From: Candidatus Woesearchaeota archaeon
Lineage (GTDB): Archaea; Nanobdellota; Nanobdellia; Woesearchaeales; GW2011-AR9
NCBI GenBank assembly: GCA_018676855.1
Contig: JABHDY010000003.1
Coordinates: 316,359-380,358 of the forward strand
Direction of reading: 5' to 3'
DNA length: 64,000 nt
Shown here: piece after piece, positions 10,309 to 14,959 of the stretch
How the letters are laid out: each line of letters starts with the position of its first letter
How positions within the stretch are numbered: the stretch's first letter is position 1
The notes under the pieces: model-generated
Told to the model about the DNA's origin: nothing
What the model saw: only the letters and a program-made list of their open reading frames with translations
Database searches by the model: none
Program-made: the position numbers and the translations under genes

Positions 10309-11163
10309 ATGGACAATAGACCAATAGGAGTTTTTGATTCAGGAGTTGGAGGGTTAACAGTAGTTAAAGAACTTATGCGAGAACTCCCAAATGAAAATAT
10401 TATCTATTTTGGTGATACTGCAAGGGTTCCCTATGGTTCAAAGTCCATTAAAACCATTGAAAGATTTTCTTTAGAAATTCTTAATTTCTTACTAAAACAA
10501 AATGTAAAAGCCGTTGTTATTGCGTGTAACTCTGCATCGGCAGCTGCACTAAAACTTTTACAAGATATATCGCCAGTTCCAGTTTATGGAGTTGTTGATG
10601 CAGGAGTTTATGCAGCATTAGAAGTAACAAGAAATAACAAAATAGGAATTGTTGGTACAAAAGCCACTATTAGAACGAATGCGCATAGAAACCTCTTTAT
10701 GGAACACAAAACAGGTTTGAAACTTTTCACACAAGCATGCCCCCTTTTTGTTCCATTGATTGAAGAGGGAATGCTTCAATCTCAAATAACAGAAAATGTA
10801 ATTCAAGAGTATCTTAAAGAACTAAAAAACGAAAAAATAGATACATTAATTTTAGGATGTACACATTATCCATTACTTAAAGAGAGAATAGAATCTTTTC
10901 TTGGACCAACAATAAAAACAATTGATCCAGCAATAATGTTAGCAAAACAAATAAAAGAAAACCCATTACTTAATAATGCAAAGAATAAAACTGTTAGTTA
11001 CAAATTTTTTGTAAGTGACGTTCCAGAAGATTTCCTTAGTATAAGTGCCCGGTTCCTTGAAATGGAAAGAATAAATGTTGAGAAGATAGTGTTAGACGAG
11101 ATTCAAATAGAAAAAGTTATGGAAACGTTAGTTCCAGTAAAAACAATTCAAAATGCAAACTAA
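10309..11163 (+). CDS. murI: Glutamate racemase
   Basis: IGVFDSGVGGLTV, FGDTARVPYGSKS, VIACNSASAAAL, LGCTHYPLL signature motifs. Confidence 0.85.
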   Translation: MDNRPIGVFDSGVGGLTVVKELMRELPNENIIYFGDTARVPYGSKSIKTIERFSLEILNFLLKQNVKAVVIACNSASAAALKLLQDISPVPVYGVVDAGVYAALEVTRNNKIGIVGTKATIRTNAHRNLFMEHKTGLKLFTQACPLFVPLIEEGMLQSQITENVIQEYLKELKNEKIDTLILGCTHYPLLKERIESFLGPTIKTIDPAIMLAKQIKENPLLNNAKNKTVSYKFFVSDVPEDFLSISARFLEMERINVEKIVLDEIQIEKVMETLVPVKTIQNAN

Positions 11164-11734
11164 TAATAATAATAAGATAGTTCTGGTTGATTGTGGTAGC
11201 AAGTACATTCAAAGACTTGTAGAGGTACTCAAAACAGATAATAGTAGTGTTGTAAGAATAAAAATTGAAGAACTAGAAAGTCGAGACTTTGATGAAGCAC
11301 ACGGAATTGTAATTAGCGGTTCGCCAACATTATTAACACAAGTTGATTATAGTCATCTTGTAAAAAAAACACAATTATGTGTTGAATCGAAACTCCCAAT
11401 TTTAGGCATCTGTTTTGGACATCAACTTTTAGGATTATATTTTGGAGCAGAAATTACTTTAGGAGAATTAAGAAAAGGAGATGAAGAAATTACTTTGAAT
11501 GAATCTGATTTGTTTAAGAATATTGACAGACAAGTAATTTTGCAAGAAATGCACCGAGAAGATATCACTGTTCCAGACAACTTTGTTCTCATTGGTACGT
11601 CTAATAACACCAAAAATGAAGCGATGAAACATAAAGATCAACCAATTTACGGAACACAATTCCATCCAGAAATATCGGGAGATGTAGGTTCAGTAATAAT
11701 TAATAATTTTATAAAGATTAGTGAAAAACAATAA
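11153..11734 (+). CDS. Class-I glutamine amidotransferase, GMP synthase subunit A (GuaAA)-like
   Basis: ILGICFGHQLL catalytic Cys motif and AMKHKDQPIYGTQFHPE His motif, 193 aa; no adjacent ATP-pyrophosphatase subunit. Confidence 0.7.
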   Translation: MQTNNNNKIVLVDCGSKYIQRLVEVLKTDNSSVVRIKIEELESRDFDEAHGIVISGSPTLLTQVDYSHLVKKTQLCVESKLPILGICFGHQLLGLYFGAEITLGELRKGDEEITLNESDLFKNIDRQVILQEMHREDITVPDNFVLIGTSNNTKNEAMKHKDQPIYGTQFHPEISGDVGSVIINNFIKISEKQ

Positions 11735-11746
11735 TAACACCATACA

Positions 11747-12346
11747 ATGATACCATATATCCAATCAACACCGTACACAACTGCTGCATCATCACTCCTA
11801 ACAATATTACATCATTTGAAAGGCATCCCATTAACGAAAGAGCAAGAATTCAACATTTGGAAAAAGACAGTAAACCTTCCAACAAGGGCCTCGTCAATCT
11901 ACGCATTAGCGTCATATGCACATAAAGAAGGATTAACACCAAAAGTAGTTGTTGAAAAGAAAGAGTACGATTTTCCAGATTATAGATTCTATAAATATAC
12001 AAAGGAAGATATTGACCATGCATCTTTTATAGCAGATTTACACTTAAGAAATGCAAAGAATAATAATATTCAAATTGAGGAACAAGAAATTACAATAAAC
12101 CATATAAAAAATGAATTAGAAAACGATAAAATACTTATACTAAGACTAAACACGAAGCCTATTCGGAATGAAAAAAGAAACACGTCAAATTATGTTGTTG
12201 TTCATGGATATTCAAACCAATATTATCATATAGTTGACCCATTGGTTGGTGGTATATCCGTACCCGAACATGTATTTCATGAATCATTCCAATCGCTTGA
12301 AACGAAAAAATATCGAGATCATCGAATGATTGTTTTCTCAAATTAA
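11747..12346 (+). CDS. Peptidase C39-like (papain-fold) domain protein with predicted catalytic Cys replaced by Thr
   Basis: N-terminus IPYIQSTPYTTAASSLLTILHHLKGIPLTKEQ aligns with the C39-like vPYysQ..ysCGpAslaMvL..g...sqee pattern but has T in place of C; conserved His candidate in VVVHGY. Confidence 0.4.
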   Translation: MIPYIQSTPYTTAASSLLTILHHLKGIPLTKEQEFNIWKKTVNLPTRASSIYALASYAHKEGLTPKVVVEKKEYDFPDYRFYKYTKEDIDHASFIADLHLRNAKNNNIQIEEQEITINHIKNELENDKILILRLNTKPIRNEKRNTSNYVVVHGYSNQYYHIVDPLVGGISVPEHVFHESFQSLETKKYRDHRMIVFSN

Positions 12347-12349
12347 AAA

Positions 12350-13111
12350 ATGTGTCGAATGTTAATTGCCGTTGGAAAAGTACAGATAGGTCCGCTATTA
12401 GATGGAATTACACAAATGGCACTTGATCAGAATTCTACGCATGAATTAAATAAAGATGTTGGACGAGGAAATTTTAAACATCCTGACGGGTGGGGCATCG
12501 CATACATGAAAGACAAAGAATGGGTTATGTACAAATCTACACAAGCAATTTTTGAAGATCCAAAAACGTCAGAGTTACGAGATATTGAAACAGCATGCGT
12601 TATCATTCATGTACGGCAGGGAACAAAGGGAGAAATTGTGAAGGAAAACACGCATCCGTTCAGGTTTCAGAGTGATGAATTGGGAGATTTTATATTTTGT
12701 CATAATGGAACCATCCATAGAGAAATTTCGCATAGTGACCTTTTCAATCCAAAGGGAACAACAGATTCTGAACAACTATTTTATTCAATCCTTACAAAGA
12801 CAAAAAAAAGTTCAATAAAATATGCAATTATAAAAACGTTTGAACAATTTTCTGACCCATTTAGTTCAAACATAATATTTGCATCAAAGAAAAAGTCTTT
12901 CATACATATGAGAGGTACAAAATATCCAACATACTTACAAATGCATATGGGGAAGAAACGAGGACTAAAGATCATCAGTTCTGAACAGTTTCACCATATT
13001 AAGAATATGAAATGGAAAGCATTACAAAACAAAGATTTAATCATAATTAACAATAAAACAGGGAGATGTAAGATCATAAAAATGCGTGAAACCGTCCTCA
13101 CCAAGCACTAA
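12350..13111 (+). CDS. Class-II (Ntn-hydrolase, YafJ/EgtC-type) glutamine amidotransferase-like protein
   Basis: N-terminal MC (Cys2 nucleophile), HPDGWGIAYM, IIHVRQGTKGEIVKENTHPF, FIFCHNGTI motifs. Confidence 0.7.
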   Translation: MCRMLIAVGKVQIGPLLDGITQMALDQNSTHELNKDVGRGNFKHPDGWGIAYMKDKEWVMYKSTQAIFEDPKTSELRDIETACVIIHVRQGTKGEIVKENTHPFRFQSDELGDFIFCHNGTIHREISHSDLFNPKGTTDSEQLFYSILTKTKKSSIKYAIIKTFEQFSDPFSSNIIFASKKKSFIHMRGTKYPTYLQMHMGKKRGLKIISSEQFHHIKNMKWKALQNKDLIIINNKTGRCKIIKMRETVLTKH

Positions 13112-13271: not shown

Positions 13272-13550
13272 ATGGAAGTTACAATATATACAATACCTTC
13301 ATGTCCATGGTGTAAAAAGCTTATTACATGGTTAAAACGGAAAAGGATACCTTTCACTGAATGTGATACGTATGAAGAAAATTCTTGTAGAGAAAGTTTA
13401 CTAAACAAAACTGGCCAGTTAGCGGTACCAACAGTAGACATTGATGGAACGGTAATCATAGGATTCCAAGAGAAACAGTTGAGTAACGCCATTGAAAAGG
13501 CAAAGAAAGCTAAAGTTCCCGAAGTACCTGTTCAGGATTCTTCTGAGTGA
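13272..13550 (+). CDS. Glutaredoxin-like small thioredoxin-fold protein
   Basis: CPWC active-site motif and glutaredoxin-like VPTV..G motif. Confidence 0.65.
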   Translation: MEVTIYTIPSCPWCKKLITWLKRKRIPFTECDTYEENSCRESLLNKTGQLAVPTVDIDGTVIIGFQEKQLSNAIEKAKKAKVPEVPVQDSSE

Positions 13551-14451
13551 AAAGGATATCGTACAAACCTTGAAGTAATGGAATGTTAACGTTAAACCGT
13601 TTTACCAATTCTGGAACACATTGTGCTGTTGTAACACCTTCAGCCACCATTGCCATTCCCTTCAAAACGTCATCTAACAAATTTCCTTTCCCAACTTCTT
13701 GACCAGCAAACCTATTTCGTGAATGTTGACTTGTACACGTCACAATAACATCGCCCATACCCGCTAAACCTAGAAATGTTTCGGGGAGGGCACCCCATTC
13801 AATTCCAACTTGTTGAATTTCTTGAAGACCTTTCGTCATGACAAACGCCTTTGCATTATCGCCAAGGCCCATACCATCAAGCACACCAATAAATACTGCA
13901 AGAATGTTTTTCAGTGCTGCACAAACTTGCACACCAACAAGATCATCACTTAAATCAACTTTGAAAGTATCAGTTTCAAAAATGTCTTTAATCTTTTCTT
14001 TTCCTTCACTACCTGCTAACACAATGCCGCTAAATAATCCTTTACACACTTCTTCTGCATGCGTTGGCCCATATAAACAATACACTTCTGAAGAATATTG
14101 TTTCATAACATCGCTTAACAATTGCGTATTGTTTGCAAACCCTTTTGAACAGACGATTATTGGTTGATTCTTGAGGAACGGTTTTGCTTTTTCCATGGTA
14201 CTTTCTACTTTATCAGATGGAACAACAACTAAAATTAATTCGCTGTCTGAAAGAACGGGTTCCATGTTTGAATAAACGGAAATGTTTTCGGGCAATTTTG
14301 CGTCTGGAAGCAACGGACAGAATCGATCCTGATGCATCTTTTGTGCTTGCTCTTGAAAGAATTCCCACATAGTAATTGTATGATTTTTTTTTGCTAAATG
14401 GACAGCTAATGCCGTCCCCCAACTGCCACCACCAAGAATAGATATTTTCAT
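13510..14451 (-). CDS. gpsA: NAD(P)H-dependent glycerol-3-phosphate dehydrogenase (bacterial GpsA type)
   Basis: MKISILGGGSWGTALA Rossmann motif and GpsA C-terminal domain; start set at internal ATG 14451. Confidence 0.8.
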   Translation of the reverse strand: MKISILGGGSWGTALAVHLAKKNHTITMWEFFQEQAQKMHQDRFCPLLPDAKLPENISVYSNMEPVLSDSELILVVVPSDKVESTMEKAKPFLKNQPIIVCSKGFANNTQLLSDVMKQYSSEVYCLYGPTHAEEVCKGLFSGIVLAGSEGKEKIKDIFETDTFKVDLSDDLVGVQVCAALKNILAVFIGVLDGMGLGDNAKAFVMTKGLQEIQQVGIEWGALPETFLGLAGMGDVIVTCTSQHSRNRFAGQEVGKGNLLDDVLKGMAMVAEGVTTAQCVPELVKRFNVNIPLLQGLYDILFTQKNPEQVLREL

Positions 14452-14491
14452 AACGTGAAAGAATAGATATGCATTTAAATTACTTATGAAT

Positions 14492-14959
14492 TTATTGTAC
14501 AACAATCGTCCCAATCGTCCCGATAACAACTGCATCTACGTACGTATATTCTCCCGATTCAGTAAATGTCCATGTGAATGTATCGGAACTTTCTAAAAAA
14601 CCGCTGTTCATTGAAGATATTTCTCGTACGCCGACAACAAGTGCAGACAATGAAGTCCTATCATTTCTCCAAAGAATTTCTTGCCCTTTATCAACAACAA
14701 TCTTTTTTGGATGAAACCCGTCTTGTGAAATGGTAACTTCCATAATATTGTTAGCATCTTGCTGATTACCACTAATACTATTAAATGAATCAAAAAAAGA
14801 ATCAAACAAACTTATCGGCCTAACAGCTTCATGATTCTGAGAAAAAATAAGGGGAGCAGTAAATATGGTGCCATCATACAATGTAAAGAACATGCTTGAT
14901 GCAGTAACACCATACATCAAAATACAGAGTAATCCAAGAATTGACAAGAATTTTTTCAT
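14492..14959 (-). CDS. Secreted protein (Sec signal peptide), unknown function
   Basis: MKKFLSILGLLCILMYGVTASS signal peptide; last gene of a four-gene surface operon. Confidence 0.45.
   Translation of the reverse strand: MKKFLSILGLLCILMYGVTASSMFFTLYDGTIFTAPLIFSQNHEAVRPISLFDSFFDSFNSISGNQQDANNIMEVTISQDGFHPKKIVVDKGQEILWRNDRTSLSALVVGVREISSMNSGFLESSDTFTWTFTESGEYTYVDAVVIGTIGTIVVQ

Follow-up and report, generated by a model that had tools for sequence, protein, structure and literature searches.

What does a protein do that retains the fold of a C39 peptidase after losing both residues of the catalytic dyad? This question is raised by a gene in a 64,000-nucleotide stretch of the genome of a Candidatus Woesearchaeota archaeon (GenBank assembly GCA_018676855.1, contig JABHDY010000003.1, positions 316,359 to 380,358 of the forward strand; G+C content, 35%; hereinafter, the window). 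The protein product of this gene, C39L, begins with MIPYIQSTPYTTAASSLL, and the gene is defined as follows:

11747-12346, forward strand: C39L, a standalone, 199-amino acid (aa) DUF3335/C39-like papain-fold protein without the Cys-His dyad (open reading frame [ORF] from ATG to stop)

The answer that we favor, with moderate confidence, is that C39L is a dyad-less pseudo-protease that binds a small acidic/anionic gamma-glutamyl or D-amino-acid peptide for the enzymes encoded in the surrounding gene island.

C39L clears the gathering threshold of PF11814 (DUF3335, Peptidase_C39 like family) with 51.4 bits vs 25 (E=1.3e-13), residues 4-167 being aligned with positions 4-167 of the 206-position profile, and its C-terminal half also weakly matches PF03412 (Peptidase_C39). 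No match to PF05023 (phytochelatin synthase, C83) was detected in C39L at E≤1, and the search of PDB sequences produced a sole, marginal, C-terminal match to 6mpz. The AlphaFold2 model of C39L, built from 58 homologues, is very confident (pLDDT 96.7, pTM 0.92), and Foldseek agrees with a papain/C39-like fold at a probability of 1.0, so that the predicted fold is confirmed; this outcome bears out the preliminary description of the stretch, which had proposed such a fold and named structure prediction as a check. The canonical family motifs Q..FTCGP, PHWVVV, and DP read Q..YTTAA, SNYVVV, and DP in C39L, which is a divergent sub-clade of PF11814.

The catalytic positions were mapped through two alignments. 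In the alignment of the C39L profile with 6mpz, tsfTTaassl pairs with EALECGAASL and NtsNyivv pairs with NFNHFVVL; in the hmmalign alignment of 72 distant DUF3335 proteins chosen for having both Cys and His (hereinafter, the canonical set), the Q..FTCGP, PHWVVV, and DP motifs fall in the matching columns. The two alignments thus equate Gln6 of C39L with the oxyanion Gln, Thr12 with the Cys, Asn148 with the His, and Asp164 with the Asp. Counts among orthologues given here and below refer to 121 sequences, a search of 5.8 billion proteins having retrieved 172 homologues, 120 of them listed:

11762-11764, forward strand: Gln6, the retained oxyanion-hole Gln position (Q in 111/121 orthologues and 67/72 canonical DUF3335 proteins)
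11780-11782, forward strand: Thr12 (codon ACT), the catalytic-Cys position (aligned to the Cys of 6mpz and to Cys in 72/72 canonical proteins)
12188-12190, forward strand: Asn148, which replaces the catalytic His (aligned to His101 of 6mpz)
12203-12205, forward strand: His153, off the catalytic position and unconserved (H in 57/121 orthologues)
12236-12241, forward strand: Asp164-Pro165, the third triad position (C39 DP motif), retained (D in 120/121 and P in 118/121 orthologues)

In the canonical set, D is present in 56/72 and P in 65/72 proteins, and the 16-residue spacing between Asn148 and Asp164 matches the His-Asp spacing of C39 peptidases, as in ComA-PEP. C39L contains no cysteine at all, as is the case for 54 of the 121 orthologues. 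The preliminary description correctly noted that the catalytic Cys is replaced by Thr; its further claim, that a His is retained, did not survive the alignment because the catalytic His column is occupied by Asn148 (N in 109/121). The "His candidate" mentioned there is probably His153, located five residues past Asn148 in a column that otherwise varies widely (Y, T, K, N, S, F, L, and Q among other residues). Given that the His column is N148 and that His153 is variable, His153 is ruled out as the catalytic His.

The loss of the dyad is a property of the entire clade. The 120 listed orthologues are about 200 aa long, share at least 55% identity, and, where a source name is available, come from Woesearchaeota, Nanoarchaeota, or unnamed archaea; a genome scan identified C39L in 45 species-level loci. 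At position 12, T is found in 92 orthologues and C in 26, with N and A in one each, and the corresponding codons in the 45 species genomes are ACN (36), TGT (6), GGA (1), and GCC (1); position 148, apart from the majority N, is K in five sequences, S in four, Q in two, and H in one. All 26 orthologues with Cys12 carry N148, and the lone orthologue with H148 has T12, so that Cys and His never co-occur in this crown clade, which rules out that the orthologues with Cys12 compensate by restoring the dyad. The preliminary description had reasoned that Cys in orthologues would make Thr a strain-specific substitution. Cys does occur, as a recurrent minority, but Thr is the clade-wide majority state, in 92/121 proteins and 36/45 species genomes, and the strain-specific explanation is rejected. 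The C and T lineages intermingle: three of the Cys proteins have, at 69-73% identity, a Thr relative that is no more distant than their nearest fellow Cys protein. No correlation of the T/C state with the neighboring genes is apparent across the 45 loci.

The ORF is intact and full-length in 44 of the 45 species genomes. In locus L044 (8001-8602), the orthologue has Ala at position 12 and is broken into two reading frames (8001-8183 and 8207-8602), which probably reflects either a pseudogene or a frameshift in the assembly. Many of the locus-bearing records (L002, L005, L007, L009, and others) are titled "uncultured Methanosarcinales archaeon" and look like misassigned DPANN bins.

A profile search of 1.84 billion representative sequences yielded 220 hits, of which approximately 32, at E<1e-30, constitute the subfamily; no fusion to a partner domain was found among its members in this search, all of which are at most 246 aa long. 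In the deeper members, position 12 is G, S, A, N, L, T, or C, and position 148 is K, R, S, Q, T, N, or H. The intermediates P0128, P0147, and P0153 keep both Cys and His, and more distant hits are canonical Cys/His/Asp proteins. P0128, with its Cys and His intact, already has the new YKFPAYRF motif, and therefore the YRF motif predates the loss of the dyad. A rough neighbor-joining/Fitch reconstruction puts Cys/His at the root and implies approximately 18 changes at position 12 and approximately 20 at position 148.

Conservation was assessed among 58 sequences with 54-69% identity to C39L, in which 17 columns show no variation and a further 34 reach at least 90% conservation. Some of the conserved residues are shared with canonical DUF3335, namely, Q6, T8, T11, L17, E34, I37, W38, L54, A55, A58, G62, L124, D164, and P165, and these represent the scaffold and the cleft periphery. 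The others, invariant or nearly so, are specific to the clade: A13 (G in canonical proteins), P45-T46-R47, the coil from Y74 to K86, R133, N135, K137, R140, K143, N145, S147, N148, and K187-K188-x-R190. Two segments stand out:

11966-12004, forward strand: the subfamily loop Y74-x-F-P-D-Y-R-F-Y-[RK]-Y-[TK]-K86 (F76, P77, D78, Y79, R80, F81, and Y84 invariant in 121/121)
12143-12190, forward strand: R133-N135-K137-R140-K143-N145-S147-N148, a remodelled strand-loop-strand leading into the former His strand (from conservation and the secondary structure of the model)

DSSP analysis of the C39L model assigns residues 70-85 to coil, that is, a loop without regular secondary structure. Canonical DUF3335 proteins lack the FPDYRFYRY.K motif and show only a weaker Arg/Lys signal there. 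In the second segment, R133, N135, and N145 are invariant, and K137, R140, K143, and S147 are at least 95% conserved; in canonical proteins, columns 133, 147, and 148 are instead occupied by L, P, and H, respectively. Altogether, ten polar or charged residues are invariant, and seven of these (T46, Y79, Y84, R133, N135, N145, and K188) have no conserved canonical counterpart. The clade has been remodelled and is not decaying: it combines 17 invariant with 34 near-invariant columns, including new polar invariants that its canonical relatives lack.

The genomic setting of C39L provides the other part of the evidence. The gene is packed between two co-directional neighbors, a class-I glutamine amidotransferase (GATase-I) gene upstream and a class-II GATase gene downstream, within the following array:

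9237-11734, forward strand: upstream three-gene module, ATP-grasp/MurI/GATase-I (Pfam, NCBIfam, and PDB matches), consisting of the next three genes
9237-10304, forward strand: Ddl-like ATP-grasp ligase
10309-11163, forward strand: glutamate racemase MurI (TIGR00067, 242.7 bits vs a cut-off of 146.65)
11153-11734, forward strand: class-I GATase (GAT1)
12350-13111, forward strand: GAT2, a standalone class-II (N-terminal nucleophile, Ntn) glutamine-amidotransferase-like amidohydrolase (PF13230, E=7.6e-24; begins MCRM)
13272-13550, forward strand: glutaredoxin-like gene, the conserved downstream border of the island (order recurs in 45 loci)
13510-14535, reverse strand: GpsA, next after the glutaredoxin-like gene

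A protein identical to the Ddl-like ATP-grasp ligase is on record from a Candidatus Woesearchaeota archaeon, which places the window in a DPANN genome. GAT2 starts 3 bp past the C39L stop codon; its best NCBIfam match is EgtC (1.8e-12, under the cut-off), and its nearest PDB entry is 1te5. Because the MurI and GATase-I reading frames share 11 bp and the remaining junctions of the five-gene row, from the ATP-grasp ligase to GAT2, are 3-12 bp, the arrangement is consistent with co-transcription. The enzymes around C39L keep their catalytic residues: MCRM in GAT2, GICFGHQ...HPE in GAT1, and ACNSAS and GCTHYP in MurI.

Across the 45 loci, C39L occupies a single syntenic slot, with the gene order metallophosphoesterase, rpS3Ae, a variable island, and then glutaredoxin and GpsA. 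GAT2 is the most frequent neighbor of C39L (27/45 loci). Genes for GCS2-type, glutamate-cysteine-ligase-like enzymes are present in 21 loci and a longer GCS form in four (PF04107/PF03074); the other island ligases are RimK-like, GshB-like, and ATP-grasp_3 enzymes, such that about 30 of the 45 islands encode at least one ATP-dependent amide ligase (GCS2-type or ATP-grasp). An Asp/Glu racemase is encoded in six loci (PF01177, 2.4e-43), an M55 D-aminopeptidase in four, and an S66 LD-carboxypeptidase in the island of L040. In L009, L013, and L017, two class-II GATase genes flank C39L, each beside its own GCS2-type ligase gene, which suggests duplication of ligase-amidase pairs.

Further genes border the island or belong to it. 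A gene for a membrane-anchored glycoside hydrolase of family 3 (GH3; NagZ-like, PF00933, 7.8e-34) is convergent to the island in 20 loci (for example, L011, 10797-12248), and a small 116-aa transmembrane ORF is convergent to it in 17; there is no GH3 match in the window. A weak Amidase_3 match adjoins the P0128 gene (L047). Taken together, GH3, S66, M55, and the weak Amidase_3 match resemble a muropeptide-recycling toolkit. Three island families, X433 (four loci), c15 (about 404 aa, four loci), and c21 (about 331 aa, three loci), have no Pfam match even at E≤1; families without a Pfam match are found, for example, at L006 6674-7975, L021 3302-4603, L024 5036-6250, and L005 7009-8004. X433 contains a faint ATP-grasp-like R.D....G.KVVEVN stretch, and X341 is weakly related to GshB-like ATP-grasp.

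The upstream trio behaves as a separate module of its own. It is rare, with nine homologues of its ATP-grasp at E≤1e-10 among 5.8 billion proteins. The trio recurs in L050 (4354-6846) with C39L and without GAT2, and in L051 (1418-3901) and a 537-kb contig without either gene; it is present in none of the 45 species loci. A fixed five-gene operon is thus ruled out by the rarity of the trio, its absence from the species loci, and its occurrence without C39L; of the operon in the preliminary description, the position of C39L between GATase-I and GATase-II stands, and the fixed unit holds only in part. The GATase-I in the window is most similar to the archaeal GMP synthase subunit A (2lxn, E=6e-29), yet falls under the NCBIfam cut-off, and the composition of the trio suggests ATP-dependent ligation or amidation of D-glutamate.

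Under the favored reading, the framework of the cleft, that is, Gln6, Thr11, Glu34, Trp38, and Asp164-Pro165, has been kept, and the largely basic and aromatic residues that are new to the clade and that neighbor the former active site along the sequence (those of the FPDYRFYRY.K loop together with R133, N135, K137, R140, K143, and N145) would turn the cleft into a specific binding site. Peptide-bond cleavage by the papain mechanism has probably been lost, and C39L may function as a binding subunit that holds, presents, or sequesters a small anionic peptide. The ATP-dependent amide ligases encoded alongside, of the GCS2 or ATP-grasp type, would synthesize this ligand, and the neighboring amidohydrolases would trim it, in particular the class-II GATase encoded directly downstream, which would be the likely partner of C39L. 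Rather than act as a nucleophile, Thr or Cys at position 12 would offer a small side chain for hydrogen bonding at the helix 1 N-terminus. The basic character of the C39L family (median isoelectric point [pI] of 9.1) fits an acidic ligand. Moreover, the pairing of DUF3335 with a ligase and an amidohydrolase is family-wide because the catalytically intact bacterial GNAT-DUF3335 relative P0169 is also flanked by an RLAN/RimK-type ATP-grasp and an AstE/AspA deacylase. Of the two possibilities raised in the preliminary description, an inactive binding domain is the better supported; the other, a Thr/Ser nucleophile, leaned on the His that is absent.

Several observations weigh against a pure binding role. 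In the crown clade, position 12 is almost solely Thr or Cys (118/121), with Ser, Ala, Gly, and Val nearly excluded, and this restriction persists even though the passage from ACN to TGY codons needs two substitutions; the constraint is tighter than a passive helix-capping residue implies. Gln6 and Asp164 are still retained. The new invariant residues would line the old cleft, a placement derived solely from sequence position and predicted secondary structure. Finally, C39L has no obligatory neighbor, GAT2 being missing in about 40% of the loci, and the ATP-grasp/MurI/GATase-I module is also found without C39L.

C39L might instead be a papain-fold enzyme with a rebuilt active site, which we consider unlikely. 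Such a site would comprise either Thr/Cys12 with the invariant Lys/Arg/Asn/Tyr residues or FPDYRFYRY.K, R133, N135, and N145 alone, and might carry out a hydrolysis, transpeptidation, or amidation step on a gamma-glutamyl/D-amino-acid peptide produced by the island ligases. If this were the case, a Thr-tolerant or His-independent catalytic mechanism would be seen for the first time on the papain fold, and C39L would mark a small-peptide pathway of DPANN archaea that is as yet undescribed.

In one specific version, also an improbable one in our estimate, C39L would be an amidase or transacylase with Thr12 (Cys12 in a fifth of the orthologues) as the nucleophile and a non-His base; an invariant Lys or Arg could act as the base, in an arrangement resembling Thr-Lys-Asp, on an activated substrate, for example, an acyl-phosphate or a thioester supplied by the neighboring ligase. 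The limitation of position 12 to nucleophile-capable residues speaks for this version, as do the interleaving of C and T lineages, given that the path from T to C requires Ser or a double hit, the retention of Gln6 and Asp164, and the precedent of BtrH and CtaG, papain-fold transacylases that partner with ATP-grasp ligases. However, the His is missing at the base position in 120/121 orthologues, position 12 is occupied by G, A, L, or N in sister lineages that retain FPxYRF, and the Gly that follows the nucleophile in 62/72 canonical proteins is Ala in the C39L clade. Furthermore, Thr12 is internal, within helix 9-25 of a papain fold, in contrast to the Ntn/Thr hydrolases, where the nucleophile is at the mature N-terminus and the fold is alpha-beta-beta-alpha; no enzyme with a papain fold is known to us to use Thr as its nucleophile.

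In another version, which we find harder still to credit, residue 12 would be uninvolved, and the papain scaffold would be reused for a different reaction on the island metabolites, with the chemistry performed by D78, Y79, R80, Y84, R133, N135, N145, and K188. The invariance of the seven polar or charged residues without a conserved canonical counterpart is typical of catalytic or tight-binding sites, and P0128 demonstrates that the YRF motif is older than the loss of the dyad; nevertheless, no known catalytic constellation is recognizable among these residues, and pure ligand binding fits the pattern equally well.

That C39L is a genuine C39 bacteriocin-leader (double-glycine) peptidase is highly improbable: the fold, the weak PF03412 match, and the public names of the orthologues point in this direction, but the catalytic Cys and His are both absent, and C39L is a cytoplasmic, standalone protein with no fusion to an ATP-binding cassette (ABC) transporter and no link to an ABC exporter or a double-glycine leader, no transporter or precursor-peptide gene being seen near it in the window. 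There is no ABC transporter inside the island either in the window or in most of the loci; in three loci, an FtsX/MacB permease pair, without a visible ATPase and not of the C39-exporter type, is located 0.2-4 kb from C39L. The notion of a decaying remnant without function, suggested by the loss of catalytic residues and the frameshift-split orthologue in L044, is the least credible of all, contradicted by the full-length ORF in all other species genomes, the invariant columns, and the newly fixed residues.

With C39L viewed as a dyad-less binding protein, several implications follow. The orthologues of about 200 aa from Woesearchaeota and Nanoarchaeota carry public names such as "peptidase C39 family protein" and "(predicted) double-glycine peptidase"; this annotation is misleading because the evidence indicates that the clade cannot work as a C39/double-glycine peptidase. 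Pseudo-proteases are common, yet this clade offers a clean natural series for the origin of a pseudo-enzyme, in which the triad is at first intact, is then still intact but accompanied by the new loop, and finally gives way to a rebuilt, invariant site without the dyad. In addition, C39L flags a hyper-variable island whose place on the chromosome is fixed and in which amide ligases of at least two folds are shuffled with racemases, gamma-glutamyl-type amidohydrolases, a D-aminopeptidase, and an LD-carboxypeptidase. Such a gene repertoire points to an uncharacterized metabolism of small gamma-glutamyl/D-amino-acid peptides in genome-reduced DPANN archaea, which could revolve around a thiol cofactor or an envelope peptide or could salvage muropeptides from bacteria, and for which candidate genes are now defined. 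Our literature search on Woesearchaeota or DPANN with glutamate racemase or Ddl found nothing relevant, and that on DUF3335/PF11814 found a classification paper and a passing mention only, the family being uncharacterized.

Comparison with known systems helps place C39L. The closest functional analogue under the favored reading is the C39-like domain (CLD) of the ABC exporters of RTX toxins, such as the HlyB CLD (PDB 3zua), which forms one polypeptide with an ABC transporter and recognizes its protein substrate in the unfolded state. C39L shares with the CLDs a C39 fold with the nucleophile lost. However, in the HlyB CLD, the His is reportedly kept and the Cys alone is replaced (by Tyr), whereas in C39L, both are gone. 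C39L is, moreover, a standalone, cytoplasmic protein of the DUF3335 branch, not an N-terminal ABC-transporter domain, and is encoded among small-molecule ligases and amidases. The C39 domains of peptidase-containing ABC transporters (PCAT1, LahT150 [6mpz], and ComA-PEP) are active Cys-His proteases fused to the transporter; compared with these, C39L has about 70 extra residues (128/199 align), no dyad, and no transporter. The primitive phytochelatin synthase Alr0975 (2btw/2bu3) and the pseudomurein endoisopeptidase PeiR (8z4h) are active Cys-His-Asp enzymes; the likeness of C39L to Alr0975 is structural only, with no family membership with Alr0975 or PeiR detected at the sequence level. The papain-like transacylases BtrH and CtaG need the Cys-His-Asp triad (the C11A, H128A, and D144A mutants are dead) and act on carrier-protein-bound substrates, in contrast to C39L, which lacks the dyad and has no carrier protein encoded nearby. 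The closest sequence relatives of C39L are the canonical DUF3335 proteins (PF11814; for example, P0169), with Q6, T11, E34, W38, D164, and P165 in common. Unlike C39L, these keep Cys, His, and Asp (Cys and His in 72/72 of a set selected for both), lack the FPDYRFYRY.K loop and R133/N135/N145, and frequently carry a fused GNAT, AstE/AspA, or nucleotidyltransferase domain; the GNAT fusions and the kinship of DUF3335 to PF09778 have been noted (PMC10318531). Like C39L, however, canonical DUF3335 proteins are encoded beside an ATP-grasp ligase and an amidohydrolase, and against this background, the standalone, dyad-less, remodelled DUF3335 clade in a ligase/racemase/amidase island, found here only in Woesearchaeota/Nanoarchaeota-type assemblies, appears to be previously undescribed.
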